Of a DNA stretch of 39,373 nt, positions 4,702-30,139 are shown one piece after another (the stretch's first letter is position 1; each line of letters opens with the position of its first letter). Source of the stretch: an uncultured Acidimicrobiaceae bacterium (GTDB taxonomy: Bacteria > Actinomycetota > Acidimicrobiia > Acidimicrobiales > SZUA-35). The stretch lies in the NCBI GenBank assembly GCA_964423455.1, contig CAYRFS010000002.1, forward strand, positions 1-39,373, in the 5' to 3' direction. Below the pieces are notes generated by a model. It was given only the letters and a program-made list of their open reading frames with translations. It had not been told where the DNA came from and made no database searches. The position numbers and the translations under genes were made by a program.

Positions 4702-5988
4702 CTAGTCCCCGACCACGCGCAGCACGCTGCCGATGCCGGACACGACGTCGAGGCGCCGCAGGTCGGCCAGGGTGGCCCGCAGGTTGCGTTCGATGGCCCG
4801 GTGGGTGATGAAGGCGATGCGGGCCCCACTACCCAATCCCTGCTGCTCCATCGACCGAATCGACACCCCGTGGGCGCCGAAGGCGCCGGCCACGGCGGCC
4901 AGCACGCCGGGGGCGTCGCTGACCTCCAGGTTCACGTAGTAGGCGCTGGCCAGGTCGTCGATGGAGCGGATCTTGGCCCGGGCCCCGGTGGGAACCGGGC
5001 GGTGGTGGCCCCGGAGGCGGTTGGCGGCGGCGTCGATCACGTCGCCCAGCACGGCCGAGGCGGTGGGGCGGCCGCCGGCCCCCCGGCCGTAGAACATGAG
5101 CTCGCCGGCCGCGGTGCCCTCCACGAATACGGCGTTGAAGCTGTCCCGCACCGAGGCCAGGGGGTGGTCGACGGGGACCATGGCGGGGTGGACCCGCACC
5201 CCGATCTCCCGCCGGGCGCTCTCCGTGCCGGCGAACGCCTCGGCCACTGCCAGCAGCTTGATCTCGTAACCCAGGCGGTGGGCGTAGTCGATGTCGGCGT
5301 CCGTGAGGCCGGCGATGCCCTCATGGAACACGTCGCCCGCCACCACCTGCTCGCCGAAGGCGATCGAGGCCAGGATGGCGGCCTTCGCCCCGGCGTCGTA
5401 ACCCTCCACGTCGGCCGTGGGATCGCGCTCGGCGTAGCCCAGGTGCTGGGCCTCGGCCAAGGCCTCGGCGTAGCTCACGCCGTCGGTGCTCATCCGGGTG
5501 AGGATGTAGTTCGTGGTGCCGTTGACGATGCCGAGCAGGCGGGTCACGTCCTCGCCCAGCAGCGATTCCCGCAGGGGGCGCACGATCGGGATGGCCCCGG
5601 CCACGGCCGCCTCGAACAACAGGTCCACTCCGGCGGCGTCGGCGGCGGCGTAGAGGTCGGCTCCCACGTTGGCCAGCAGCTCCTTGTTGCCCGTGACCAC
5701 CGACTTGCCGGAGCGCAGGGCGCTCTGGATGAGGCTGCGGGCCGGCTCGATGCCGCCGATGACCTCCACCACCAGGTCGATCGTGGGGTCGTCGACCACC
5801 GACTGGGCGTCGGTGGTGAGCAGGGCGGGGTCGAGCTCGCCGGCCCGTTCCTTGGTGATGGAGCGGACGGCCACCCGGGCCAGCTCCAGCTCCACCCCGC
5901 TGGTGGCGGCGATGGCAGCCCGGCGTTCGTTCAGCAGCTCGACGAAGGCACCACCGACGATGCCGCAACCCAGGAGTCCGATTCTCAC
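4702..5988 (-). CDS. hom: Homoserine dehydrogenase
   Basis: The GTG at 5988 gives VRIGLLGCGIVGGAFVELL (NAD-binding GxGxxG). A catalytic domain and a C-terminal ACT-like region follow. The longer 482-aa ORF-track version adds an implausible N-terminal extension. Confidence 0.92.
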   Translation of the reverse strand: MRIGLLGCGIVGGAFVELLNERRAAIAATSGVELELARVAVRSITKERAGELDPALLTTDAQSVVDDPTIDLVVEVIGGIEPARSLIQSALRSGKSVVTGNKELLANVGADLYAAADAAGVDLLFEAAVAGAIPIVRPLRESLLGEDVTRLLGIVNGTTNYILTRMSTDGVSYAEALAEAQHLGYAERDPTADVEGYDAGAKAAILASIAFGEQVVAGDVFHEGIAGLTDADIDYAHRLGYEIKLLAVAEAFAGTESARREIGVRVHPAMVPVDHPLASVRDSFNAVFVEGTAAGELMFYGRGAGGRPTASAVLGDVIDAAANRLRGHHRPVPTGARAKIRSIDDLASAYYVNLEVSDAPGVLAAVAGAFGAHGVSIRSMEQQGLGSGARIAFITHRAIERNLRATLADLRRLDVVSGIGSVLRVVGD

Positions 5989-6058
5989 GTGGAACGAGAG
6001 TAGTGGGCGCTGCCCCCCACCCCTCGGCCGCCTTCCGTCACACGGGGTAGGGTGGACC

Positions 6059-7789
6059 ATGGCTGAGTACTCCGTGGTGTGGCCCCGTGGGCCCAAGACG
6101 GCCAAGCTCGTGGAGCTGGCCCCCCGACTCGATTCGTTGGAAGGCCGCAAGGTCGCCTTCCTGTGGGACTACCTGTTCCGGGGCGACGAGATCTTCCCCA
6201 TCCTGGAGCGGGAGCTGGCCGCCCGCTATCCGGGCATCACGTTCGTGCCCTGGAGCGAGTTCGGCACCACCCACGGCGAGGGCGAGCACGAGGTGCTGGC
6301 CAACCTGGCCCACCGCTTCACCGAGCTGGGGGTCGATGCCGTCGTAAGCGGCATGGGTTGTTGAGGCAGCTGCACGCCCGCCGTGTTGCGGGCATCCGCT
6401 GCCGCTGAGCTGGCCGGGGTCCCCACCGCCTCGCTGGTGTGCGAGGGGTTCCTGGGCCAGGCCGCCACCACCGCCGTGGGCCTGGGCATGCCCAACCTGG
6501 CCGTGGCCCCGGTGCCGGGCCACGTCGACACCCAGGCCTACGAGGTGCTGGAGCGCAACGTGGTGGAGGTGACGCTGCCGGCCGTGATCGACAACCTGGT
6601 GTCGCCCCGCCCCGAGGCGGTGGAGGTGGCCGACCCCGAGCGCACCGAGGTCGTGTTCACCGGCTCGGTCGAGGAGGTCAACCGGCTGTTCTACGAGAAC
6701 GGTTGGTCCGACGGGCTGCCGATCGTGGCCCCCACGATCGCGGCGGTGGAGGAGTTCCTGGCCTTCACCGATCTCGACGCCGAGCACAGCTTCGGCCCCC
6801 TCCTGCCCGACAACCGGGCCGCCACCGTGTGGTCGGTGGCCGTAAACGGGGTGATGGCGGGGTGCCGGCCCGAGTACCTGCCGGTGCTGCTGGCCATCGC
6901 CGAGGCGCTGGCCGACCCCGCCTACGGGGTTGAGCACTCGGGCAACACCCCAGGGGCCGACACCCTGATCACGGTCAACGGGCCGATCGCGGCCCAGCTC
7001 GGGTTCAACTGCGAGCAGGGCGTGCTGCGCGACGGGTTCCAGGCCAACACCTCGGTGGGCCGCTTCCTGCGGTTGTATCTGCGCAACGTGGCCGGGTTCC
7101 TGCCGTGGCAGACCGACAAGGCCACCTACGGCAACACCTGGCGGGTGGCCATGGCCGAGAACGAGGCGGCGCTGGCCAAGATGGGCTGGGAGCCGCAGTC
7201 GGTCGACTTCGGCTTCGCCCCGGGCGACAACGCCGTCACCATCTCCCGCTACACCGGCGGCGGGGTGGTCACCTCGGTGTTCGGGTCGACCCCGGAGGAG
7301 ATGGTCGACTACCTGGCCGACGGCCTGGCCAAGATCGGGGGCTGGGAGTACGTGTTCACCATCGGGGTGGCGGGCGGGAGCTACCGCCCGCTGCTGCTGC
7401 TGTCGCCGGTGCTGGCCGAGACGATCGCCAAGGCCGGCTGGAGCCGGGCCGACCTCAAGCGGGCGCTGTGGGAGAAGGCCCGGATCCCGGCCTGGCGCTT
7501 CGAGCACTACCTCGGCCACTGGACGAACCTGGTTCCGGGGCGGCGCTCGCTGGAGGACTTCGTGAACATGCGGCGGGCGCCCAAGGTGTACGCCGAGTCG
7601 GCCGACCCCGAGCGGATGGTGCCGGTGTGCACCGAGCCGGACCACATCTCGATCGCGGTGACCGGCGACCCGCTGCGGACCAACGCCTACGTGTTCGCCC
7701 ACAACGGCATGCTCGGGTTCCCGGTGGCCAAGAAGGTCCGCCTGCCCGACGGTTGGGAGGCCAAGCTTTCCGCCGCCCGGGCCCGGTGA
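6059..7789 (+). CDS. Predicted selenoprotein: an N-terminal UGSC-type redox domain (Sec at TGA 6362-6364) fused to an uncharacterised GW(S/T)DGLP domain
   Basis: ORF 5669..6364 (real start ATG 6059, MAEYSVVWPRG) and ORF 6383..7789 share one frame and are separated only by TGA 6362-6364. Read-through gives ...VVSGMGC-U-GSCTPAVLRASAAAELAGVP.... A stable hairpin starts right after the TGA. The C-terminal roughly 390 aa is paralogous to the next gene. Confidence 0.7.
6365..6403 (+). promoter_or_regulatory. SECIS-like stem-loop immediately 3' of the in-frame UGA
   Basis: Lower stem: GGCAGC (6365-6370) pairs with GCUGCC (6398-6403). Upper stem: GCCCGC (6376-6381) pairs with GCGGGC (6388-6393). The apical loop CGUGUU (6382-6387) contains GU and begins 17 nt after the UGA. 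Confidence 0.55.
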
Positions 7790-7882: not shown

Positions 7883-9118
7883 GTGAGCGGGGCCGAGTCG
7901 CTGTGGGTGGTCGTGCCAACGGCTCAGCGGCGGGACGGTAGCTGGATCGACGACACCCTGGTGACCCGCACGGCCGAGGCGGCGGCCGCCGCCGCCCGGG
8001 AGCCGGGCGGGGGCGGGCTGGGACCGTCGGCGGCCCGGGCCCCCGACGCCGGGCGGTTCCCCCGCCAGCGGGTGGAGTTGTTCCGGGGGCCGGGGGCGGC
8101 CGAGGCCGTCAACATCGCGTTCCGCCGCCGGGGCTGGACCGACGGGCTGCCGGTGGTGCCGCCCACCACGGCCCGGGTGGCCGACCTGGTGGCCGTGTCG
8201 GGCCGCAACCCCCAGGAGGTGGTGGGCGAGCTGGCCCCGCTGGGCGGGCTGGCCACCGTGGAGCGGGTGGCGGCCAACGCCGTGCTGGCGGGGTGCGGGC
8301 CGGAGCAGTTCGGCTACGTGCTGGCGGCGGTGAGCGCGGTGTGCGACCCGGCGTTCAACCTGGCCGGGGTGCAGACCACCGACGAGAACGTGGCCCCGCT
8401 GGTGGTGATCAGCGCCCCGGCGGCGGCTCGGGAGCGGGCCGAGCTGAACGCCGGGTTCGGGGTGCTCGGGCCGGGCTGGCGGGGCAACGCAACCATCGGG
8501 CGGGCCGTGCGGTTCGCCCTCAACAACCTGGGCGGGGGCTGGCCCGGGGTGGTGGCCTTCGCCGGGGCCGGCCAGCCCGGCCGCTACACGCTGGTGGTGC
8601 CGGAAGACGACGAGACCTGCCCCTGGCCGCCGCTGCGGGTGGAGCTGGGGCACAGGCTCGACGACGCCGTGGTGGTGGTGGGCCGGGCCGAGAGCGCGGT
8701 GAACGTGACCGGTGGCGTGGCCGAGGTCGTGTCGGCCATGGGGTCGGCGGCGTCGGCGTTCACCGCCCTGCACGGCGGGTCGGCGGCGGTGCTGCTGGCG
8801 CCCCATACGGCCCGGGAGCTGGCCGGGCGGGGCCTGTCCCGGCGGGGCGTGGCCGAGCGGTTGTGCGCCGAGGCCCGGATCCCGGCCGACGTGTGGCGCC
8901 GGTTCTGGGTGGCCGGGGCGGTGAAGGGGGCCGTTGCGCTCGCCGGCGCCATCGGCAGTGGTGACGGCAGTGGCGACGGCGGCGGGGTGCCGGTGCTGGC
9001 CGACCCCGATCGGCTGCTGGTGATGGTGGCCGGGGGAACGATCCCGATCCCCCAGCACGTCTGGTTCCCCGGCTGGGGCTTCCCCCCGGCCCACGTGGTC
9101 CGGGTCGTGGGCCGCTAA
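7883..9118 (+). CDS. Uncharacterised protein, standalone paralog of the C-terminal domain of the preceding selenoprotein
   Basis: 411 aa. It shares colinear motifs with 6059..7789: RGWTDGLPVVPPT versus NGWSDGLPIVAPT, NAVLAGCGPEQ versus NGVMAGCRPEY, and NATIGRAVRFALNNLGG versus NTSVGRFLRLYLRNVAG. It lacks the UGSC domain. Confidence 0.7.
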   Translation: MSGAESLWVVVPTAQRRDGSWIDDTLVTRTAEAAAAAAREPGGGGLGPSAARAPDAGRFPRQRVELFRGPGAAEAVNIAFRRRGWTDGLPVVPPTTARVADLVAVSGRNPQEVVGELAPLGGLATVERVAANAVLAGCGPEQFGYVLAAVSAVCDPAFNLAGVQTTDENVAPLVVISAPAAARERAELNAGFGVLGPGWRGNATIGRAVRFALNNLGGGWPGVVAFAGAGQPGRYTLVVPEDDETCPWPPLRVELGHRLDDAVVVVGRAESAVNVTGGVAEVVSAMGSAASAFTALHGGSAAVLLAPHTARELAGRGLSRRGVAERLCAEARIPADVWRRFWVAGAVKGAVALAGAIGSGDGSGDGGGVPVLADPDRLLVMVAGGTIPIPQHVWFPGWGFPPAHVVRVVGR

Positions 9119-11315: not shown

Positions 11316-12830
11316 TCAGGGGCCGGTTGTGGCGATCGGGCCCGGGTCGTCGACGGTGGCGTTGGGCCCCGGCGGCGCGGCGAGGGTGGGGTTGGTCGTC
11401 GGGGGAGCGGTCTCGAAGGTGGTGGCCGGCTGGGCCGGGTAGCGGGCGGTCCAGGTGGCCAGATCGGTGTAGGTGACGGCGTTGGCCACGGCAACGGCCT
11501 GGCCGTTGGTCAGCCCGTGGCCGACGAGCTGGGCCCACCAGCCGTGGTCGTCGAGGGGCCAGGTCAGGGTGATCCCACCGTCCTGCTCGCTCAGGTAGCC
11601 GTCCCGACCGCCTACGGTCACCCGGCTGTGGTCGGATCGGGGATCGATGGCCGGCTGGGCCGTGATCATGATGCGGCTGGCGCCGGTGCCGTAGATGACG
11701 CTCAGCCAGGGCAGCGGCTCGGCCACCGGGCCAGCGGGGCCGGCCAGGACGACCAAACCCGAAGGGAGCTGCCCCTGCACCGCCACGCTGGGCAGGCCGG
11801 TGGCCTGGGGCGTCACCCTCAGCGCGGTGATGAGGTCGTCTACCACCAGGTCGCTGCCCGGGGCGAGGTCGACCGTCATCGTGGCCCCGGCCTCGTCCCA
11901 CTGATAGCGCTGGAACGCCACCCCCGGGTTCACGTTGACAACGCCCGGTCTCTCCAGCCACTCGGCCTGCAGCGCCTCGACCACCGCATGATCGTCGATC
12001 TCGAGGTCGACCTGGAACGAGGTGGGCAGGTCGGCGGGATCGACCAGATCGAGCAGCTCGGGCCGGCTGGCGTAGTGCTGTCGGAAGGTGTCCCAGGTCG
12101 CGTCGGGGCCGGTGTAGGTGAACGAGCGCACCACGAGGGCGTCTTCGAGCAGGGTCCGGAGCGGGTCGATCTCGGCTTGCGACGCTCCAGGCCGCAGCCA
12201 GACGACCAGATCGGCCGTTCCGTCCGTCCCGTACGGCAGGCGGACCGTGCGGGCCCCAACCGATCGGGTAACGGGCGCCACCAAACCCGACGTCAGGTCC
12301 ACCGGGTCGATCGGGTCGGCGGAGACCTCCCCGCCCCCGGTGGCGGGGGCGGCTTCGACCGACACGGTGACCAGGTCGCGGACGTTCTCGCCATCGATCC
12401 GACCCAGCACCAGGGCCGGACCCGTCATCGTGAGCGAATCGCGTTGGATCACGAAGCCGGCCTCCGGGCCGAGGCCGAACGACGCCAGCACCGCCGGATC
12501 GAGCTCGGGATAGATCCGGGCACCGTCGGCAGAGGGCCCGGTGATCGGGACCAGCGGCTCCTGCCCGCCCCGCTGCCACAGGGCCAGAGTAAGCGCGACG
12601 CCCGCCACCAGCGCCGCCGCCGCGAACACGAGCCGTCCCCCCCGGGATAGCGGGCGTCCCGGCCCGAGGTGGCTGGCAGTCCGGCCCGGCCACTCCCCCG
12701 GCCCGGCGATCTGGTCGAGGCGGTCGTCCACCGCCACCCGGGCCGCCCGTTGGCGGAGGGCCCCGGTGGCGCGGGGTGCGAGGTGGTCGCCGTCTGTGTG
12801 GTCGCTCGTCATCCCAGGGCCGCTGGTCAT
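11316..12830 (-). CDS. Single-pass membrane protein translationally coupled to the ECF sigma factor. Putative anti-sigma factor with an FtsX-ECD-like extracytoplasmic domain.
   Basis: The ATG at 12830 overlaps the sigma gene stop (TGATG). One TM helix (LVFAAAALVAGVALTLALW) lies about 70 aa from the N-terminus. The external segment ASQAEIDPLRTLLEDALVVRSFTYTGPDATWDTFRQHY...DLPTSFQVDLEIDDHAVVEALQAEWLERPGVVNV resembles the FtsX extracellular domain. There is no HxxxCxxC zinc anti-sigma motif. Confidence 0.65.
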   Translation of the reverse strand: MTSGPGMTSDHTDGDHLAPRATGALRQRAARVAVDDRLDQIAGPGEWPGRTASHLGPGRPLSRGGRLVFAAAALVAGVALTLALWQRGGQEPLVPITGPSADGARIYPELDPAVLASFGLGPEAGFVIQRDSLTMTGPALVLGRIDGENVRDLVTVSVEAAPATGGGEVSADPIDPVDLTSGLVAPVTRSVGARTVRLPYGTDGTADLVVWLRPGASQAEIDPLRTLLEDALVVRSFTYTGPDATWDTFRQHYASRPELLDLVDPADLPTSFQVDLEIDDHAVVEALQAEWLERPGVVNVNPGVAFQRYQWDEAGATMTVDLAPGSDLVVDDLITALRVTPQATGLPSVAVQGQLPSGLVVLAGPAGPVAEPLPWLSVIYGTGASRIMITAQPAIDPRSDHSRVTVGGRDGYLSEQDGGITLTWPLDDHGWWAQLVGHGLTNGQAVAVANAVTYTDLATWTARYPAQPATTFETAPPTTNPTLAAPPGPNATVDDPGPIATTGP

Positions 12831-14755: not shown

Positions 14756-14800
14756 CGCATCGGCTCGGGTCGCATCGGCTCGGGTCACATCTGCTCGGGG
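14756..14800. repeat. Three tandem copies of a 15-bp unit spanning the argS stop codon
   Basis: cgcatcggctcgggt appears at 14756-14770 and 14771-14785. A degenerate copy, cacatctgctcgggg, lies at 14786-14800 and encodes the last argS residues (PEQM-stop on the minus strand). Confidence 0.75.
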
Positions 14801-16389
14801 GCTGAGACCCCGAGGAGGTCGAGGCCGATGGCGAGGCCGGTCCGGGCCGCCTCGGCCAGCCACAGGCGGGCCTGCTGGACGTCGGGTGGCACGTCGCTGC
14901 GCAGGATCGGGCAATCGCGGTAGAAGCCGTGGAAGGCGGCGGCCAGGTCACGCACCCAGGTGGTGATCTTTTGGGGGGCCCGCTCGGTGCACGCCAGCTC
15001 CACCGTCTCGGGCAGCAGCTCGAGCTGGCGCAGCAGCTCCAGCTCCCGTTCGGCGACGAGGGGGGCCAGGCTGACCTCGGCCAGCGGACGACGCTCGATG
15101 CCCCGGGTCGCTGCCTCCCGGGTGATGGAATGGATGCGGGCGTTGGCGTACTGCACGTAGTAGACGGGGTTCTCGGCGGCCTGGGCCCGCAGCACGTCGA
15201 TGTCGATGGTCTGGCCCGAGTCGATCGACTGGAGGAGGTAGGCGAAGCGGGCCACGTCGGGGCCGACGTCGTCTATCAGGTCCCGGATCTCCACCATGGT
15301 GCCGGCCCGCTTGGACAGCTTCAGCTCCTGGCCGTCGCGCAGCAGCTTCACGTTCTGGCCGATGATGACCTCGTAGGTGTCGGGGTCCTTGCCCATGGCC
15401 TGGAGGGCGGCCCGCATGCGGGGGGCGTAGCCGTGGTGGTCGGCGCCCAGGATGTCGATCAGGTGGTCACCCCGGCGGTACTTGTCGAGGTGGTAGGCGA
15501 TGTCGGGCAGGACGTAGGTGAACTCGCCGTCGCTCTTGACCAGCGGGCGGTCCTTGTCGTCGCCGAAGTTGGAGGAACGCAGCCAGGTGGCGCCATCGGC
15601 CTCGTAGGCCTGGCCCCGGGCCCGCAGCTCGGCCAGCACAGCCTCGGGGGCTCCGGTCTCGGTGAGGGCGGCCTCGCTCGACCAGGTGTCGAACTCCACG
15701 TGCATGGCGGCCAGCACCTCGCGGGCGTCTCGCAAGGAGCGCTGGATGCCCCAGGCTGTGGGATCGGCGTCGGCCGGCATCTCGGCCGCCCAGTCCGTGA
15801 TGTACTGACCGAGATAGCCGTTGTCGGGGGCGGGCTCGCCATTGCGGGCGGCCACGAGGGAGGCCCCGAACAGGCGGGACTGGACGCCCCGGTCGTTCAC
15901 GTAGAACTCGCGGTGGACCTTGTAGCCGCAGCGTTCCATGACCCGGGCCAGGGAGTCGCCGTAGGCGCCCCAGCGGCCACCACCAGCGTGGATGGGGCCG
16001 GTGGGGTTGGCCGAGACGAACTCGATGTTCACGCTCCGGCCGGCGCCCAGGTCGGACCGGCCATAGGTGGGCTCGCCCTGGGTCACGACGTCGGTGAGCA
16101 CCTCGTGGAGCCAGGTGGGGGCGAGGTGGAAGTTGACGAAGCCGGGACCGGCCAGCTCCAGACGCTCGACGTGGAGCGGAGGGGCGGCCTGGAGGTGGTC
16201 GAGCAGGGCCTGGCCCAACTCGCGGGGGTTGCGCTTGGCCGCCTTGGCACAAGCCAGGGCGGCGTTGGTCGACCAGTCTCCGTGCTCTCGTCGGGCCGGC
16301 CGCTCCAGCCCCACGCCCTCGGGCACGGGATCGACGCCCAAGTCGGCGAGGGCGGATCGAACTGCGTCGAGCAGTTGCTGGCGAATCAT
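14785..16389 (-). CDS. argS: Arginine--tRNA ligase
   Basis: From the ATG at 16389: MIRQQLLDAVRSALADLG. It shows a class I HIGH-like motif (ANPTGPIHAGG) and a DALR anticodon-binding C-terminus. It lies upstream of lysA, as in mycobacterial synteny. Confidence 0.95.
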   Translation of the reverse strand: MIRQQLLDAVRSALADLGVDPVPEGVGLERPARREHGDWSTNAALACAKAAKRNPRELGQALLDHLQAAPPLHVERLELAGPGFVNFHLAPTWLHEVLTDVVTQGEPTYGRSDLGAGRSVNIEFVSANPTGPIHAGGGRWGAYGDSLARVMERCGYKVHREFYVNDRGVQSRLFGASLVAARNGEPAPDNGYLGQYITDWAAEMPADADPTAWGIQRSLRDAREVLAAMHVEFDTWSSEAALTETGAPEAVLAELRARGQAYEADGATWLRSSNFGDDKDRPLVKSDGEFTYVLPDIAYHLDKYRRGDHLIDILGADHHGYAPRMRAALQAMGKDPDTYEVIIGQNVKLLRDGQELKLSKRAGTMVEIRDLIDDVGPDVARFAYLLQSIDSGQTIDIDVLRAQAAENPVYYVQYANARIHSITREAATRGIERRPLAEVSLAPLVAERELELLRQLELLPETVELACTERAPQKITTWVRDLAAAFHGFYRDCPILRSDVPPDVQQARLWLAEAARTGLAIGLDLLGVSAPEQM

Positions 16390-16702
16390 GGCGAGCTTCC
16401 TTGTCGGGTGGGGCACGGCCCACAGCGGTGGGGCGTCGGTTCGATGCTAACGGGCCGGTGTGACGGTGCCGGCCCGGTATCCGTCGGTGCTGGCGGCACC
16501 ACCAGGATTGATTGCCGGCGCCCGGCTATCCCGGGCTGCCCCCAACGGCGTCACGGTGCACCCTCGTGTGAGCGCAGGAGATTTCCCGCGGGAAAGTCGG
16601 GGACCGACCGGCGAGCAGCCTGAGGGTGGCGACGATTTCTGGCGAAACCATAGAAACCGGGTAGCGACCGGCGCCGGGGTGGCTAACCTTGGTTCGTCCC
16701 TG

Positions 16703-16774
16703 GCCCCCGTAGCTCAGTGGATAGAGCATCGGTTTCCGGAACCGTGTGCGTAGGTTCGATTCCTATCGGGGGTA
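16703..16774 (+). tRNA. tRNA-Arg (anticodon CCG); CCA is not encoded
   Basis: Manual cloverleaf. Acceptor: GCCCCCG/CGGGGGU. D arm: GCUC-AGUGGAUA-GAGC. Anticodon arm: UCGGU-UUCCGGA-ACCGU, with CCG at positions 34-36. Variable loop: 4 nt. T arm: GUAGG-UUCGAUU-CCUAU. Discriminator: A. Confidence 0.88.
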
Positions 16775-17223
16775 CTACCAGATCCGCCGCCTGATCAGGG
16801 CAAACGCCCTGGTGGCAGGACTGGGGCGGATTGACCGCCGTTGCCCGCTGGGGGCCTGGTTTCGCCCTGGTTCGCGGGGCCACCGCGGGGCAGGATGCCA
16901 GAGGGCTCAACTTCGTCGGTCAGGACCCGCGTAGCTGCGATGGCCGCTGGCGGCCCCTTGCCACACAGGTACGCAGATCCCAAATTGCCGCCCGCAGTCA
17001 GCGGAGCTGCGCCAGAATCGACCGGCGTGACCATCGACCAGCCCCAACCTGACCTCCTCGAGCATCTCGTGGTCGAGTTTGGTGATCACGGCCACCGTGC
17101 TGCCGGCTTCCTCGAAGCGGCATACACACTGTTGAGCAGGACAGAGTTCCACGATGTTCCGAGGCTCCCTGAGACGATTGCGTACTGCCTACGCGAGGCC
17201 ATGAAGACGATCCCGGCCTCCGT

Positions 17224-17620
17224 GGCAACCGGCGAGCCGATGGCCTGCTGATCGCCGTCACGGTCGTGGTTGCCAGCACGTCTGACAACGCTGGTGGGAT
17301 CACCGTGGCTGACAAGGCCCGAAAGCGGTCCAGCCGTTTCTCCAAGCTGTGGTGAGATTCCGGGTTCAAGACCCAGTTCATCCGGCACTGCCGGGAGCAT
17401 CACATCGGAGTTGAGGTCGTCAGACGGATCCATGCCCACCAGTTCGTCGTGCTTCCCAAGCGATGGATCGTGGAACGGACGGACCTGGTCATGGATCATG
17501 AACAACCGTCGCCTCCAAGTCGACTACGAACGCGACCCCATCACCACTGAAGGTTTCATATGGGCCGCCCAGACCCGCATCGCCCTCAGGAAACTAGCGG
17601 AAACAACCGCACGAGCCTGA
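17224..17620 (+). mobile_element. Degraded C-terminal remnant of an IS4/IS5-superfamily DDE transposase (one in-frame stop plus one frameshift)
   Basis: Frame 1 reads ...LLIAVTVVVASTSDNAGGITVADKA...SKLW-stop-DSGFKTQFIRHCREHHIGVEVV...HQFVVLPKRWIVERT. The sequence then continues in frame 2 as WSWIMNNRRLQVDYERDPITTEGFIWAAQTRIALRKLA. The RWxVERT...W...RRL..DYE...F...A...I...R.L tail is typical of this transposase class. The N-terminal half is absent. Confidence 0.55.
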
Positions 17621-17793
17621 CCAGCCGAAACTACCGTGACAGCCTCTTATAAGTCTGCCTGGGCCGACCGCCTGCAACGACGGGCGAACCGAGCCGGGTC
17701 GACGACCTCCTAGCCGTGAGCGATCTCGGGCGGCCATTCCTGCAGTTCAGGTGCGCCATCGAGGCAGAGTCGTCGTGCCCGTTATCGAACAGG

Positions 17794-19419
17794 TTAGCCG
17801 TCGACGAACGCAATGATGAACTGCGGGACACCGTCGATAGTCAGCTCGCCCACGACCCTGTTGTCAGCGGTGATCTCGCATTCGCAAGCGACCACAGCCG
17901 CACGACCATCAACCGTGCCTTCGCCCGATCCGCTGAGCTGGCGACTATCGATATCGATCGACCCGGTGATCGTTCCCTCGTGAATGATCACCGAGCCGCA
18001 GGGCTCCTCGCGGTCGATGACGTAGTCGAGGGCGAACTCGTTGGTCTCCGTGACGGTCACGGTGACGGTGTTGCGACCTCTGAACCCGCACGCTTGTCCG
18101 AGTAGACCGAGGCGACCAGTTCGGGTACCCGCTGCTGATCTGGGATCGAGCGGTAGATCTGTCCGCGGGCGGCCGGAGCGGTCGAGTTCGATCACATCGG
18201 TTGTGTCGGGGGTCCAGCTGTAAGCGCTGGATCCATCGGTAACGACGACGTATCTTTGCGTCCAGGTTCCGGCCCAGATGGTGTCGTGGCTATCGGAGGG
18301 CAGGTCGAGGGTCGGTCCGGGGATGTGCCACCAGCGGTCGCTGTCCGGGTCATAGACAGTGGCGTGCTCCCTTCCCGGTTGCCACCAGATGACTTGGTCG
18401 CCGGTCCAGATCGCGATGCCGTCGGTCCAGGCCGGCGCCAGGCTGCTCGCACTCCAGGTACGGGCGGCGGGGTCGTAGATGCCTCCGGGTGCGAGTGGCT
18501 CGGGAAACGGATCGACCTCACCGCCGGTGATGAGCTGTGGCCAAGATGAGGCGACCAGAACCTCACGACCGGTCCAGATCAGCTGCGGTCCCTGCCAGGT
18601 CGCGATCGGCGCGTCTGGAAGCCGAGACCACGTCTGGTCGGTCAGGCTGAGCGAAGCCCCGACGAAAAACGGCTGTTCGTCGGTCGATCCGATCAGGATC
18701 AGGTTCTCACCGTCGATGACGGCCCCCGTCTCGTAGATGCCAGTCGGCAACGGTGGTGGCGGAAGCTCGTCCCATTCTCGCGTGGCGAGGTCGAACGAAA
18801 CTGCCGTGACCGGCACCTCGGCATCAGGGTCCGTTGTCCACGCGATCAGCCCTGTAGAGGTTGCGGCCGCTGATGGGCATTGACCGTCCAGCAGGTCCGG
18901 AACGTCGAAGGGCTCCGCAGTCCCGGCGCTGATATCGACGACGAGGCCGACCACCTTGACAGAGTAGATGGACGCGTTGCCGATCAGAACGGCATCGCCA
19001 TCGAGCGCAACTGCTGTGCCACAGTACGGAATCTCGCCGGCATGCTCGACCGCGTACCAGCCACCGGTCTCGGCATCAACGACCGAAGCCGCACCGTGCC
19101 CCGACGACGTCTGCCCCCAGACAAGGAGTCGATCGTCGAAACTAGCCAACTGTGGCCCAAGCAATGTCTCCGGTGCCTGGTCCAGGGCATCGGCTCGAAC
19201 CTCGTCCGTCACGGTCGCTGAACTCGAGGTCTCGTTGTCTGAGATCGCGGTCGTGTCCGGAACCGTCATGGACATCGCTGTCCGCTCAGGTTCGGAGGAC
19301 CCGCACCCAACCGCGAGCACGGCCCAGAGACCGACCACTCCGAGCAGCCTTCCTCGACCCGATAACACTGCAACAGAATGCCAGACAGAACATGTGCATA
19401 TCCGGCAGGCCCGGGCCAC
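17794..19419 (-). CDS. Lipoprotein with Kelch-like beta-propeller repeats
   Basis: Lipobox LAVGCGSS after a hydrophobic signal. Repeated W-rich blades follow (LLVWGQT, GGWYAVEH, REWDELPPPP, QTWSRLPDAP, RTWSASSLAP, DRWWHIPGP). The exact start is uncertain. Confidence 0.65.
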   Translation of the reverse strand: MARACRICTCSVWHSVAVLSGRGRLLGVVGLWAVLAVGCGSSEPERTAMSMTVPDTTAISDNETSSSATVTDEVRADALDQAPETLLGPQLASFDDRLLVWGQTSSGHGAASVVDAETGGWYAVEHAGEIPYCGTAVALDGDAVLIGNASIYSVKVVGLVVDISAGTAEPFDVPDLLDGQCPSAAATSTGLIAWTTDPDAEVPVTAVSFDLATREWDELPPPPLPTGIYETGAVIDGENLILIGSTDEQPFFVGASLSLTDQTWSRLPDAPIATWQGPQLIWTGREVLVASSWPQLITGGEVDPFPEPLAPGGIYDPAARTWSASSLAPAWTDGIAIWTGDQVIWWQPGREHATVYDPDSDRWWHIPGPTLDLPSDSHDTIWAGTWTQRYVVVTDGSSAYSWTPDTTDVIELDRSGRPRTDLPLDPRSAAGTRTGRLGLLGQACGFRGRNTVTVTVTETNEFALDYVIDREEPCGSVIIHEGTITGSIDIDSRQLSGSGEGTVDGRAAVVACECEITADNRVVGELTIDGVPQFIIAFVDG

Positions 19420-19620
19420 CCGCTCGGTATCGACGGCGGCGCCCGCACGGTATCGGCAGGCGTCGGAGCCGGGCGTGATCCCGAGTGTGAGAGTCGTGCA
19501 GCAGTGGCCCGTCTCCCGCTGGAGGTGAGCGGCGTTGTCGAGCGGGTTGAACTTCGCCGGGACCGCTGAGCGGCGCCGGTACTTCGGCTGCTCAACACCT
19601 TCGGGTCGAGGCGTGCAGAG

Positions 19621-20109
19621 TCAGTGTTTGCGGGTCACGGTCTCGTCGTGGTCGAGTCGCCAAGTTGTGATGTCGAGGTGTCCTTCGTTGATCTGTACTG
19701 CGGCGGCTCCATGGAGATTGGCTCGTAGGAATCGGTCGAATCGCTGGCCACGCAGATCGAGACCGATCAGCTCGAAGAGGTGTGTAGCGAAGCGCTGATG
19801 GAGTGCTTCGTCGTCGATGTGTTCTACGTGGCCCCAGATCTTGGCGTCGCTCTCGGTCACCTTCGGGTCGATCGTTGCGGTGTGCAATGCAAAGCGGGCG
19901 TCGCGTTCGAGATCGGCGAACTTCGTTGTGTTGGGCATACCGACCAGCCAGAGGTCGTGTTCGAACACACGGGGTTCCATGGGGCTGATGCGGGGGAATC
20001 CGTCGGGCCGTAGGGTTGCGAGGAGACACAGGTTGCCGGTGGCTTGGAATCGCCGTTGGAAAACCTCGGCGATGCGTGGCGCTTGTCGAATGAAGGTTTG
20101 CCAGGTCAC
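19621..20109 (-). CDS. Pyridoxamine 5'-phosphate oxidase family (FMN/F420-binding split-barrel) protein
   Basis: 162 aa. LCLLATLRPDGFPRISPMEP...LWLVGMPNTTKFADLERDARFALH matches the PPOX-fold pattern. The ATG overlaps the upstream stop (ATGA at 20106-20109). Confidence 0.65.
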   Translation of the reverse strand: MTWQTFIRQAPRIAEVFQRRFQATGNLCLLATLRPDGFPRISPMEPRVFEHDLWLVGMPNTTKFADLERDARFALHTATIDPKVTESDAKIWGHVEHIDDEALHQRFATHLFELIGLDLRGQRFDRFLRANLHGAAAVQINEGHLDITTWRLDHDETVTRKH

Positions 20110-20567
20110 GGTGTCGTCTCCTTGGTTGGGCCGTCATCTTCGTCGAGTTGCTTGACTGCCCGTGTCGGTGCGACAAGGCGGTAGCTGAGCTCGATCAGCT
20201 CGGCCAGCTCACCCCAGTCGGGGGTGGGTTCGAGTCGGATACCAAGTACCGACGGTGTCCAGCGGGCGCCCCAGGGCGGCGCGAAATACGGGCTGTTCGG
20301 TTGAGCGCGTTCGAGCACGTCGCCACGATCGGCCCGTACCGTCAGCACACATAGCGGGCCGCCGCTCCCCGCGGCGCTGGCATAGGCCGGTGGCCAGCCG
20401 TTGCTGATCATCACGAGATAGGCGAACCCTTTGGCGCCGGCCCTCCACCGCACACCCGTCCATGCTGTCTCCTCAACGACGCTGGGCCACCGGGAGCAGA
20501 TGCTGCGCACCTGGCCCACCACGGCCAGTGGCACCTCGGCTGCCAGGCCGCGGTCGTTTCTGGTCAT
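20106..20567 (-). CDS. MmcQ/YjbR family protein
   Basis: 153 aa. WPSVVEETAWTGVRWRAGAKGFAYLV ... WGELAELIELSYRLVAP follows the YjbR-family pattern. It overlaps both neighbouring genes by 4 nt. Confidence 0.55.
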   Translation of the reverse strand: MTRNDRGLAAEVPLAVVGQVRSICSRWPSVVEETAWTGVRWRAGAKGFAYLVMISNGWPPAYASAAGSGGPLCVLTVRADRGDVLERAQPNSPYFAPPWGARWTPSVLGIRLEPTPDWGELAELIELSYRLVAPTRAVKQLDEDDGPTKETTP

Positions 20568-21070
20568 GGCCGTCCTGTCGCGGTGAGGGATCGCTCATAA
20601 CGCCGCACCGTGATGCTGAGCGGACCTTGCCCGCAGGAGGCGTGGTAGTCGTAGTCCCCGGTGTCGTGCCAGCCTTCGCGCTGGTAGAACCGGCGAGCGC
20701 GGTCGTTACCGGTCGCAACCGCCAGCCACGCCACCGGAAATCCGTTCTCCTGTACGAGCGTCTCGCCGTGCCGCAACAGGTACGACGCCACTCCGGAGCC
20801 TCTAGCGGAACGCTCCACGTAGACCTCTTCGATCTCGTCGGCGGCCACGGTGACGAAACCGACGACACAGTCGCCAAAGCACGCCACCCACGACCGCGCT
20901 AGTCGAGCGGTCACCTCGTCGGCCCAACAGCCGGACAGCCGGGCCTGCTCAAGCTCTGCCGGAACGTGACCGGCATGGCCGTCGCTCCAGCCGAGCCGCC
21001 AGATCGCTGCCATCGCCTCCACGTCGGGCTCACCAGCTCGCCGGATCCGCACTACAGCCGTGTCTCTCAT
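20564..21070 (-). CDS. GNAT family N-acetyltransferase
   Basis: VVGFVTVAADEIEEVYVERSARGSGVASYLLRHGE (acetyl-CoA motif A, R/Q-x-x-G-x-G/A) and NDRARRFYQREGW. Confidence 0.85.
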   Translation of the reverse strand: MRDTAVVRIRRAGEPDVEAMAAIWRLGWSDGHAGHVPAELEQARLSGCWADEVTARLARSWVACFGDCVVGFVTVAADEIEEVYVERSARGSGVASYLLRHGETLVQENGFPVAWLAVATGNDRARRFYQREGWHDTGDYDYHASCGQGPLSITVRRYERSLTATGRP

Positions 21071-21134
21071 GTACCGGCCTCCTCGGCCACGACCCCTGGG
21101 TCACTGTCGTTCACTCATACGGCAGTTACAATGT

Positions 21135-21734
21135 ATGACCATGCGTGACACTGGTCAAGAGTTCTTCACTGGTTACAGCGACGCCGGCATCCACGTCGCC
21201 ATCGGACTCGTGAACGATGTCGCCCTCAGCAAGCCGACCGGCACCGAAGCACTCGACGCGATCGCCCAGATCATCGCCTTCGACCCCCCGACCCACGACC
21301 GACTCCGGCCCCGACACATACCCGGGTTTGTCGCCCTCGCCCACACCGTCCATCAGATCGTCACCTGGATCGACGCCGGAGACCTCGACCCGGCGGCAGC
21401 ACAGCTCAACGAGCTACTGGCCACGCACCCCGCCAATCCCCACCTGTCCAAGGAGAACGGCAGGTGGCAACTCCACCACCACCCCGCCACCGTCGACCTC
21501 GTTCCGATGTACACCTCAATCTGCGCCGAGGTCCTGGCCCGACTCATCGGCACCGGCCACGCCCAACGCCTCGGCCGGTGTGCCGACGCCACCTGCGGAC
21601 GGGCCTACCTCGACCAATCCAAGAACAACAGCCGCCGCTACTGCTCCACAACCTGCCAGAACCGCGCAAAGACCGCAGCCTTCCGCGCCCGCCAACGATC
21701 CACGCACCCAAACCACACTGCATCTCAAGGCTGA
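21135..21734 (+). CDS. CGNR zinc-finger (ABATE-type) putative regulator
   Basis: C-terminal CADATCGRAYLDQSKNNSRRYCSTTCQNRAKTAAFRARQR is the CGNR zinc-finger signature. It is divergent from the GNAT operon. The start is taken at the MTMRDTG ATG. Confidence 0.8.
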   Translation: MTMRDTGQEFFTGYSDAGIHVAIGLVNDVALSKPTGTEALDAIAQIIAFDPPTHDRLRPRHIPGFVALAHTVHQIVTWIDAGDLDPAAAQLNELLATHPANPHLSKENGRWQLHHHPATVDLVPMYTSICAEVLARLIGTGHAQRLGRCADATCGRAYLDQSKNNSRRYCSTTCQNRAKTAAFRARQRSTHPNHTASQG

Positions 21735-28065: not shown

Positions 28066-28341
28066 CGGACCTGGAGCTCCTCCTGTGGGTTCGGGTCGCG
28101 TGCACCGTGGCAGGAAGGGCGTTCACTCGTCGGCATCATCGACCAACCTAGTCTCCCGGCCGCTCCGCCGACGCTCGGGGCCGGGCCGCATCGGGCGGGC
28201 TGCCGAGCCGGCCGGCTGCCAGGCGCACCGCAAGTGCCGCGCCACGCGGGACACCTCGGATCTCAAGGACGTTCGACACTCCCGGCTACCGGCTCGAGAC
28301 CTTCATGATGGAGACGCAGAGCAACCGAGGAAGTGATCGCC

Positions 28342-29187
28342 ATGACAGCTGTTGCCTCGTCCCACAGGGGCCCGCCCCCCGCTGCAGCGCCCGCCACCAT
28401 CAAGCGGGGGCGCCTGCTCCGCTGGTACCTCGCCGGCGCCCTGGTGAGCTTCGCCATCCCCCTGATGGGCGCCGACGTTCTGGAGCTCCACCACGACCTG
28501 TACCTGCTCGTGTACTTCACGGTCGCCGGCACGTTCCTGACGTCGTTCGCGGCACACGCCGGCATCGACTGGAAGAGATGGCTCGCCCCGCGACGCTGGT
28601 GGAGCGTCGGCGCCGGTGTCCTCGTTGCCTTCGCCATCGTGAGCAAGGTGCTCCGCGAGGCGGCGATGCCCCATCCTGAGGGCAGCTTCTTCTGGTTCGA
28701 GTTGGCATGGCGTGGCCTCGTGTACGGCTTCGTCGACGCCTTGCTGCTGTTCGTGTTCCCCGCTGCGGTGGCCCACGCCCTCCTCGGCGATCGTGACCGC
28801 CGCCGCCGTGTTCGGTTCGCCGCCCTGTCCCTTGTGCTCTCGTTCGGCATCACCGCCGCCTATCACCTGGGCTACCCGCAGTTCCGGAGCACCGATCTCG
28901 TCCAGCCCGAGATCGGTGCGGTTGTGGCATGGGTGCCCACAGCACTGACCGGCAACCCGGTGGGGGCGATCGTCGTGCACGACGCCTACCACGTGGCTGC
29001 CAACGTGCACCGGTATCACAGCGAGATCTACCTGCCGCCCGATCTCGACGGCTACGCCGAGCGCGGCAGCGGCGCCGCCGGGATCGCCGCCGCCGGTGCG
29101 TGGGTCGTGCTCGGCGGAGGCGCCGTCTATCTCGCTCGGCGGCGCCTCTTCCCCGGCACCGACATCCCTGGGCCTGCTGTGGTGTGA
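28342..29187 (+). CDS. Polytopic membrane protein, possibly a CPBP (CAAX/Abi) family intramembrane protease
   Basis: The ATG at 28342 has GAGGAAG 8 nt upstream. It has multiple TM helices. The motifs are spaced like CPBP motifs 1-3: FELAWRGLVYG (cf. EExxxR), ITAAYHLGY (FxxxH) and HDAYHVAANV (HxxxN). Motif 1 has only one Glu. Confidence 0.5.
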   Translation: MTAVASSHRGPPPAAAPATIKRGRLLRWYLAGALVSFAIPLMGADVLELHHDLYLLVYFTVAGTFLTSFAAHAGIDWKRWLAPRRWWSVGAGVLVAFAIVSKVLREAAMPHPEGSFFWFELAWRGLVYGFVDALLLFVFPAAVAHALLGDRDRRRRVRFAALSLVLSFGITAAYHLGYPQFRSTDLVQPEIGAVVAWVPTALTGNPVGAIVVHDAYHVAANVHRYHSEIYLPPDLDGYAERGSGAAGIAAAGAWVVLGGGAVYLARRRLFPGTDIPGPAVV

Positions 29188-29305
29188 CGGACATCCGCCA
29201 TGGGGGGCTCGGCCCCGGGAAGGACGCCGTTCGGTAGGGAAGCCCGCCCCGGAAATCAACCGTACGGTGGATGTTCGGTGGCCGCATCGGCCTGATCCTG
29301 TGGCC

Positions 29306-30139
29306 ATGCCACGCATCGACGAGCTCGACGTACCCTTCATCGACACGCTCGGGTCGGCCTATCACGCCGACTTCCACCGCTTCCACGCCGAAGCGCTACA
29401 GCAATCGTGGGTCGCGTCGACCCCGCTCGGCCCGCTGGTTCTGAGCGACCGGCACGTGCGGGCGTTGCTCCGGGACCATCGGCTCGACACGGTCACGATG
29501 CAGTGGACCCTGGAGGCGCAGGGCGTGGGGGATGGGCCGTTCTGGCAGCGAACGACCCGGACCCTGCTCGCTCTCGACGGCGACGATCACCTGCGGCTGC
29601 GGCGGCTGGCCATGCCGTTCTTCACGCCCGAGGCAGTCGATCGCCTCCGGCCCTTCATGCGCCGCACGATGACCACGCTTCTCGACGCAGTGTTCGGTGA
29701 CCGCTGCGACGCGGTGGCGGCGTTGGCCCGCCCCTACGCCTCCGCCGTGCTCTGCGAGCTCGTGGGCGCGCCCGACCGCGACTCGGAGCAGATCGCCGCC
29801 TGGGCAGCCGACGTGCTGTCGGTGTTCGAGTTCCAGTTGGAGAAGGATCGCCGGCGGATCGAAGACGCCCAGGCCGGGATCGACGCCTACGTGCGGGCAC
29901 TCCTGCACCACCGGGGTAGCACCCCAGGCGATGACCTCGTGACCGCGCTCATCGCCCATAGCCAGCAGCACGGCACCTTGAGCGAGGACGAGGTGGCCAT
30001 GATCATCACCGACGTCCTGGTGGGCGGCATCGACACAACCCGGCATCAGCTCGCCCTGGCTCTCTAGGCGATCACGGAGCATCCGGTCGCATGGGAGTTG
30101 CTCAGCGCCGATCCGTCGAATCCCGGTGGGCGGGCATGA
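29306..30139 (+). pseudogene. Cytochrome P450 remnant (N-terminal two thirds, with an in-frame TAG and a 3' truncation)
   Basis: P450-like sequence extends up to the I-helix (DVLVGGIDTTRHQLALAL). TAG 30065-30067 follows, and the same frame continues as AITEHPVAWELLSADPS (typical of the post-I-helix region) before ending at 30139. The ExxR and Cys-heme loop regions are absent. Confidence 0.65.

Follow-up and report, generated by a model that had tools for sequence, protein, structure and literature searches.

A probable selenocysteine codon with a conserved recoding hairpin in a long-form UGSC-family gene of an uncultured Acidimicrobiaceae bacterium

The DNA analyzed here, 39,373 nucleotides (nt) from an uncultured Acidimicrobiaceae bacterium (contig CAYRFS010000002.1, assembly GCA_964423455.1; the whole stretch is called the window below), contains a gene whose reading frame is interrupted by a UGA codon that is predicted to be read as selenocysteine (Sec). 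On the strength of sequence comparisons, we conclude with a probability of roughly 0.93 that positions 6059-7789 form a single gene for a 576-residue selenoprotein of the UGSC family; there is little doubt that the TGA at 6362-6364 encodes selenocysteine and is accompanied by a recoding hairpin. The ATG at 6059 opens a frame of 577 codons that closes with the TGA at 7787-7789, and the only internal stop is the TGA at codon 102. In a mechanical list of open reading frames (ORFs) the region appears as two entries, 5669..6364 and 6383..7789, which lie in the same frame and are parted by this one TGA, exactly as had been described in the original prediction, made from the letters of the sequence. 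The true start of the selenoprotein gene is the ATG at 6059, which leaves an N-terminal piece of 101 codons ahead of the TGA; the part of the longer ORF upstream of this ATG overlaps the homoserine dehydrogenase gene (hom) on the opposite strand and is spurious, non-coding sequence. Read-through gives the peptide ...VVSGMGC-U-GSCTPAVLRASAAAELAGVPTASLV..., which runs on to the stop at 7787-7789. The GC content at third codon positions (GC3) of the gene is 0.97, in a window of 71% GC.

The identity of the interrupted codon was assessed in homologs of the fused translation. Thousands of relatives were recovered from about 5.8 billion proteins, and 11 of the matches are full-length (578-607 residues). 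All 11 have a cysteine in the column of the TGA, in the context ...G-[AC]-C-G-[SA]-C-T-P-A-V.... At the genome level, with each GTDB species represented by one genome, 584 relatives were found, the best 80 of which were analyzed as loci; together with a second copy in one of these loci (L078) and the window gene, they provide 82 Sec-form genes. Every one of the 82 has TGA at this codon, set within an invariant C-U-G-S-C-T-P motif, and the seven loci with a Cys form carry TGT or TGC in the same column (7/7). Two outcomes named beforehand as fatal to recoding, that homologs would end at the TGA with a separate gene downstream and that conservation would fail to span the codon, were not encountered: no such split occurs in the 80 loci, and conservation crosses the TGA in all of them. 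The hosts of the Sec form belong to about ten phyla or classes, namely Actinomycetota/Acidimicrobiia, Alpha-, Beta- and Gammaproteobacteria, Methylomirabilota, Dormiibacterota, Nitrospinota, Myxococcota, Acidobacteria and, within Chloroflexota, Dehalococcoidia and Limnocylindria; a single cultured organism, Steroidobacter flavus, is found among the hosts of the 80 loci. Selenoproteins had been thought uncommon in actinobacterial genomes of this type. That expectation did not hold for this gene, since nine loci from metagenome-assembled genomes (MAGs) of Actinomycetota/Acidimicrobiia have it with the identical TGA, and the name 'UGSC family (seleno)protein' is already in use at NCBI for homologs from Acidimicrobiia.

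A second line of evidence comes from the RNA directly 3′ of the UGA, where a two-tier hairpin resembling a bacterial selenocysteine insertion sequence (SECIS) element had been proposed. The minimum-energy fold of 6365-6403 (-22.5 kcal/mol) is this hairpin exactly as described, with a lower stem of GGCAGC (6365-6370) paired to GCUGCC (6398-6403), an upper stem of GCCCGC (6376-6381) paired to GCGGGC (6388-6393), and an apical loop, CGUGUU (6382-6387), that begins 17 nt past the UGA. Comparison across the family upheld the apical 6-base-pair (bp) stem and its 6-nt loop as conserved features, and showed the lower stem to be specific to lineages. When positions are numbered with the T of the TGA as 0, the five pairs of the stem 15-19/30-26 (CCCGC/GCGGG) are invariant in all 82 Sec forms, as is every loop position except +24, which is Y or A. 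The closing pair 14:31 is G-C in 50 of these genes, A-U in 17, G-U in two and unpaired in 13; the compensatory change from G-C to A-U, seen in 16 of 74 distinct sequences, combines a silent third base of a Thr codon with the second base of an Ala/Val codon. The core of the window gene is identical to the family consensus.

Part of the invariance of this 16-nt core comes from the conserved peptide T-P-A-V-L-R-A. The Cys forms separate the contribution of the peptide from that of the RNA. In the 82 Sec forms the third-codon positions +17, +20, +23, +26 and +29 have zero entropy, and flanking third positions mostly show 1.0-1.96 bits (0.56 at +8 and 0.80 at +11). The seven Cys-form genes encode the same peptide, T-P-A-V-[LIV]-R-A, using CCA, CCT, CCC or CCG for Pro, GCC, GCG or GCA for Ala, and CGT, CGG, CGC or AGG for Arg; among them the number of different bases is three or four at each of +17, +20, +26 and +29, the fifth site varies in one of the seven, and the stem pairs 16:29 and 19:26 can form in just two. 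Since the Cys forms keep the peptide while choosing codons freely and breaking the stem, the constraint falls on the RNA and is confined to genes that have UGA at this codon. This Sec-specific constraint, the cysteine in homologous proteins and the constant TGA together bear out the recoding site that had been predicted.

The hairpin also agrees with all four published criteria for bacterial SECIS elements. These ask for a loop of 3-9 nt on a stem of 4-16 bp, with a G as first or second loop base and a U right after it, a spacing of 16-37 nt from the UGA, and a minimum free energy of -7.5 kcal/mol or below (PMC13188914, Fig 2A); the window element has a 6-nt loop with G at loop position 2 and then U, a 6-bp stem, a spacing of 17 nt and an energy of -11.2 kcal/mol. 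The SECIS geometry anticipated for the site was thus confirmed by folding, and its apical part is the portion under constraint in Sec forms. Like the bacterial consensus (bSECISearch; E. coli fdhF), the element lies inside the coding sequence directly 3′ of the UGA and shows G-U as the second and third bases of a small apical loop, a stable upper stem and the 17-nt spacing. In contrast to bacterial SECIS elements as a group, which are described as generally dissimilar in sequence, the apical core of this family is near-invariant over about ten phyla or classes. No family in Rfam matched, either at gathering thresholds in the window or at E ≤ 10 around the site.

These features suggest the following route of decoding. 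The elongation factor SelB would bring Sec-tRNA(Sec) to UGA 6362-6364, which would be decoded as Sec, and SelB itself would be recruited by the messenger RNA hairpin that starts right after the UGA; the functional core would be the stem-loop CCCGC-CGUGYU-GCGGG (6377-6392), with its loop 17 nt after the UGA. We infer this mechanism from the established bacterial pathway and from the linkage of the gene to selA, selB, selC and selD in relatives, not from this genome, and it leaves the picture of how Sec recoding works unchanged.

Most of the top protein matches, measuring 454-469 residues and covering only the post-TGA 78-81% of the query, are recorded in databases as starting at the GTG at 6383-6385. 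On their face such records favor two genes, a 101-residue protein for which TGA 6362-6364 is a true stop and a 468-residue protein that starts at this GTG, and TGA is indeed the main stop codon in the window. However, because gene callers cannot read Sec, records of the 468-residue kind are the artefact to be expected. The window's own 468-residue product has no exact counterpart among the records. The GTG that is called as a start supplies the G-U-G within C-G-U-G-Y-U, the conserved apical loop of the SECIS element; this is why so many family entries begin at that residue (MLRASA...), and no ribosome-binding site was identified for it. The six codons between TGA and GTG encode an invariant G-S-C-T-P-A in 82/82 genes, a single Pfam domain crosses the junction, and the Cys-form homologs are continuous proteins of 578-607 residues. 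We therefore regard two separate genes as highly improbable. For annotation, the consequence is that the gene is systematically mis-called as a 101-residue fragment plus a 468-residue ORF with a false GTG start, as had been foreseen, and that most entries of the family carry the error. Recognition of the Sec codon restores the 576-residue selenoprotein and marks this uncultured Acidimicrobiia-type actinobacterium as a probable user of selenocysteine.

Several observations weigh against recoding at this site. The energy of the fold is not exceptional when compared with dinucleotide shuffles (z = -0.10; 81 of 200 shuffles fold as well or better), nor does it differ significantly from synonymous recodings drawn from the codon usage of the gene itself (p = 0.11), whereas uniform synonymous recoding gave p = 0.006; stable hairpins are common here because the GC content is 71%. 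Classical covariation rests on one apical pair, the other five being invariant. The lower helix is 71% paired over the family, with 18 of 74 sequences able to form its pair 7:39. Scans of the 20 predicted proteins of the 39-kb window with Pfam, together with ARAGORN and with tblastn using SelA, SelB and SelD of loci L059 and L061, found no selA, selB, selD or tRNA-Sec, and none of the four was found in the nine Acidimicrobiia-type loci either; the one tRNA that ARAGORN predicts in the window is tRNA-Arg(CCG). Single-sequence folding statistics, being no better than those of shuffles or of recodings matched for codon usage, were dropped as evidence. The lower stem as a feature of the family and an alternative 11-bp register were rejected as well; neither is conserved, the register of the lower helix shifts with the Ser codon family (TCN versus AGY), and RNAalifold retains the apical helix alone. 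As judged from the alignments, it is the comparative evidence, not the fold energy, that lifts the hairpin and the TGA far beyond chance.

The lack of Sec machinery in the window is also what would be seen if the gene were a pseudogene, in which a TGC or TGT cysteine codon had mutated to TGA, or which had been left to decay after the machinery was lost; a single base change turns TGY into TGA. Such a change cannot have been a private mutation, as the TGA is common to all 82 genes over about ten phyla or classes. No further stop or frameshift occurs across the 576 codons of the read-through frame, and the SECIS core is intact and equal to the family consensus. Relative to Acidimicrobiia relatives, the ratio of nonsynonymous to synonymous substitution rates (dN/dS) ranges from 0.15 to 0.50 ahead of the TGA (codons 6-101) and from 0.09 to 0.33 past it (codons 103-177), on either side well below 1 in comparisons with the closest relatives; by this measure both halves flanking the TGA are translated and under purifying selection. 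The window is syntenic with two contigs of uncultured Actinomycetota MAGs, L066 (CAVTAP01; 90.9% nucleotide identity over 14 kb) and L001 (CADEDH01; 87.7% over 15.6 kb), and the best-conserved segment between the window and L066 is the selenoprotein gene itself, at 94.2% nucleotide identity. A decaying gene is thus very unlikely.

A full-length protein would also result if the TGA were read through without selenium, whether a tRNA for Trp, Cys or Arg decoded it as a near-cognate or suppressor or TGA served as a sense codon, and nothing specific speaks in favor of this. TGA terminates 14 of the 20 genes in the window, the selenoprotein gene included (TGA 7787-7789), and therefore the codon has not been reassigned; reassignment was ruled out on this ground. 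The position is that of the redox cysteine in Cys forms, the constraint on the hairpin is tied to the genes that bear TGA, and in relatives the gene adjoins selA, selB, tRNA-Sec and selD. Taken together, these points make selenium-free read-through a most improbable account of the locus.

The linkage to Sec genes, which is consistent with Sec recoding, was seen in ten of the loci, all belonging to phyla other than that of the window. ARAGORN placed a tRNA-Sec within 10 kb of the gene in 5 of the 80 loci; ten tRNAs were predicted in these loci altogether, and half of them are tRNA-Sec. In L070 and L075 it lies directly past the stop codon of the selenoprotein gene. In L059 the order is selA (TIGR00474, 569 bits), selB (TIGR00475, 406 bits), tRNA-Sec and the selenoprotein gene, with the tRNA-Sec ending about 130 nt ahead of the start codon, and in L061 and L055 selB, tRNA-Sec and selD adjoin the selenoprotein gene with NCBIfam scores that exceed the cut-off. 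By tblastn, sel genes occur in nine loci, and inclusion of the loci with tRNA-Sec brings the number with a sel gene or tRNA-Sec to the ten stated above.

Three observations on individual loci may be recorded here. The Betaproteobacteria MAG contig L078 has two long-form UGSC selenoprotein genes, at 126 and 10298, both with the TGA and the SECIS core. In L055 the selD match (15385-16483) falls in two frames, its N-terminal part in the frame of 15385 and residues 151-366 from 15836, and the selenoprotein ortholog of L066 (about 11500-11960; P0015, 527 residues) is recorded with a garbled C-terminus. The latter two look like frameshifts and are possibly indel errors of long-read MAGs.

The protein is a further member of a family that is already known: selenoproteome studies have included it from 2008 or earlier, and NCBI annotates it in Acidimicrobiia. 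Assignment to the UGSC family, the other element of the original prediction, was borne out by Pfam: the UGSC profile (PF24696) matches residues 6-180 across the TGA with E = 5.4e-29 and 101.9 bits against a cut-off of 25, covering profile positions 2-170 of 172, and the alignment of the fused translation to the family also places the cysteine of all 11 full-length homologs on the TGA. The assignment did not extend to the NCBIfam equivalog NF041046 ('UGSC family (seleno)protein'), for which the fused protein scores 44.9 bits, under the cut-off of 125; full-length homologs score 46.6 and 47.8 bits. This model has 147 positions and is apparently built for a short, stand-alone form. Its U/C-G-S-C motif is present as C-U-G-S-C in the window gene and the 81 other Sec-form genes. 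The window protein is a long-form relative of the NF041046 model and not an equivalog member.

UGSC-containing proteins were among the most abundant selenoprotein families in the Global Ocean Sampling (GOS) data, with 255 Sec and 21 Cys forms; they were enriched in non-marine aquatic samples, and a thioredoxin-like fold was suggested for them (PMC2398784). A 2016 study of about 5200 genomes reported the family in 26 organisms (PMC5029168); it is also covered in a review (PMC9312934), and a 2026 review lists it, with NF041046, as functionally uncharacterised (PMC13188914). The genes described here share with this known family the U-G-S-C motif with Sec or Cys in first place, a Pfam match well above threshold and an excess of Sec over Cys forms. 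They differ in that the long forms, the window protein included, score about 45-48 bits against the NF041046 cut-off of 125 and have an additional C-terminal domain of about 390 residues. In GOS, UGSC was seen fused to a conserved domain called 'Unknown_1' (PMC2398784, Fig S1A). The resemblance to the present gene lies in the joining of a UGSC domain to a conserved domain with a conserved Cys and in the occurrence of the partner in free-standing form, as at 7883-9118; judged by its published description, 'Unknown_1' is a possible counterpart of the C-terminal domain.

The coordinates of these features are collected in Table 1. An AlphaFold2 model was built for homolog P0019, a Cys form. It shows the UGSC domain as alternating beta-strands and alpha-helices, with the Sec/Cys residue at the junction of a strand and the N-terminal end of a helix. 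The step from a strand to the N-terminus of a helix is the usual place of a redox CxxC, as in thioredoxin-type centers. Foldseek gave only partial matches for the N-terminal domain at the top of its ranking (the N-domain of FtsZ, NQO1, MccF and periplasmic binding proteins, all with a template-modeling (TM) score of 0.19 or below), and no thioredoxin was among the top 50. The C-terminal domain is modeled with a predicted local distance difference test (pLDDT) score of 86.8 (86-87 in two models), and it gave no Pfam match at E ≤ 10, no NCBIfam match and no PDB relative by profile search. Folds of the class I fumarate hydratase and cyanuric-acid-hydrolase types were considered for it and set aside, their TM scores (0.23 or below) being too weak to use.

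Table 1. Features at the predicted selenoprotein locus (window coordinates)
Feature	Coordinates	Strand	Basis
Coding sequence of predicted long-form UGSC selenoprotein	6059..7789	+	576 residues plus stop, Sec at codon 102; translation; tblastn matches of the fused protein over about residues 1-576 in 80 loci (best 80 of 584)
N-terminal UGSC domain (residues 6-180)	6074..6598	+	PF24696; AlphaFold2 model of P0019; weak selenoprotein B matches
UGA predicted to be read as Sec, motif C-U-G-S-C-T-P	6362..6364	+	TGA in 82/82 Sec forms; Cys in 11/11 full-length homologs and 7/7 Cys-form loci
Full two-tier hairpin, lower stem lineage-specific	6365..6403	+	minimum-energy fold, -22.5 kcal/mol
Conserved SECIS core	6376..6393	+	6-bp GCCCGC/GCGGGC with 6-nt loop CGUGUU; -11.2 kcal/mol; sole RNAalifold consensus helix
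C-terminal uncharacterised domain, about 390 residues	6620..7786	+	motifs W-S-D-G-L-P and N-G-V-M-A-G-C, the latter with invariant Cys269
Downstream partner gene, paralog of the C-terminal domain	7883..9118	+	BLASTP, 30% identity, E = 7e-31

The gene downstream of the selenoprotein gene encodes a paralog of the C-terminal domain, and both keep W-x-D-G-L-P and the invariant cysteine of A-G-C; in P0046 the selenoprotein and the paralog are naturally fused. Of 88 loci, 52 have a separate paralog in the vicinity of the selenoprotein gene, in most cases as the next gene downstream. Also in 52 of 88 loci, a paralog of thioredoxin reductase (TrxR) of about 300 residues is encoded within about 10 kb and usually next to the gene; these are L081-L085, L087 and 46 Sec-form loci (for example L040 11748-12617 and L036 12938-13846), and the gene is adjacent in 7 of 8 Cys-form places. 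The TrxR-like protein scores 235-246 bits with TIGR01292, under the cut-off of 343, and has the redox motif C-A-S/W-C-D-G. Many Alphaproteobacteria have the order selenoprotein, paralog, TrxR-like gene; the order selenoprotein, TrxR-like gene is that of Dehalococcoidia and the Cys forms, and the TrxR-like gene is upstream in Gammaproteobacteria. Of the two neighbors, only the paralog is present in the window and in most of its Acidimicrobiia relatives; a few of these relatives have neither gene.

Based on these arrangements we speculate that the long-form UGSC protein works as a redox enzyme, a conjecture that we hold with lower confidence than the recoding itself. The N-terminal alpha/beta domain would carry a U-x-x-C redox center at the N-terminus of a helix, and its selenol/thiol pair would cycle between a reduced and a Se-S bonded state. 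In most lineages the adjacent, dedicated TrxR-like flavoprotein might re-reduce the center, and the UGSC domain would act together with the C-terminal domain and the free-standing paralog (7883-9118) on some substrate. Two results count against this. No TrxR-like gene was found near the selenoprotein gene of the window or in the Acidimicrobiia relatives, and thus the link to a reductase is indirect here. In addition, the C-terminal domain had no Foldseek match against the PDB at E ≤ 0.001, so that a fold relative was not found; the enzymatic function is conjectural because this domain is without a recognisable fold relative.

Weak NCBIfam matches provide a hint as to the ancestry of the UGSC domain. 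Among 33 members of the family such matches were to PrdB (8), GrdH (4), TIGR01918 (3) and GrdB (3), with a best E of 4e-4; those to selenoprotein B fall at residues 66-179 of P0019, and the best score against the selenoprotein B models (TIGR01917, TIGR01918 and TIGR04483) is 19.9 bits, short of the cut-off of 300. Selenoprotein B of the glycine, betaine, sarcosine and D-proline reductases (GrdB, GrdH, GrdF and PrdB) is likewise a U-x-x-C selenoprotein. The grd operons also encode a thioredoxin reductase, which is paralleled by the TrxR-like neighbor of UGSC genes. However, no GrdA/GrdC/GrdD or PrdA-type partners were seen, and the hosts of UGSC genes are not amino-acid-fermenting Firmicutes but, for the most part, aerobic environmental lineages. 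As a lead from sequence likeness, the UGSC domain might be a remote relative of selenoprotein B rather than a thioredoxin fold. A larger and doubtful proposal is that the selenoprotein, its paralog and the TrxR paralog form an NAD(P)H-driven selenoenzyme system, with a Sec domain that is remote kin of selenoprotein B and not of thioredoxin fold; such a system may be widespread in aerobic freshwater, soil and marine bacteria. If this were true, selenium chemistry of the 'reductase-B type' would reach far beyond amino-acid-fermenting anaerobes. For a family that is among the most abundant environmental selenoprotein families and whose function is uncharacterised, the three-gene arrangement (selenoprotein, paralog, TrxR-like gene), the near-invariant SECIS core specific to Sec forms and the weak likeness to selenoprotein B offer starting points on function.

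Three observations concern other parts of the window. At 14785-16775, argS is followed by tRNA-Arg(CCG), an arrangement kept in L066 (17995-20594). Just past this tRNA gene (16703-16775) begins a segment, 16835-21734, with a GC3 of 0.73-0.77, as against 0.85-0.98 for most other genes of the window; family searches gave little for it beyond a weak Kelch motif, and the segment may be horizontally acquired DNA inserted beside the tRNA gene. Finally, 28309-30067 holds two overlapping high-GC3 ORFs in different frames, the second with a partial match to cytochrome P450 (profile positions 191-286 of 462), and looks like a frameshifted or pseudogenised P450 gene.

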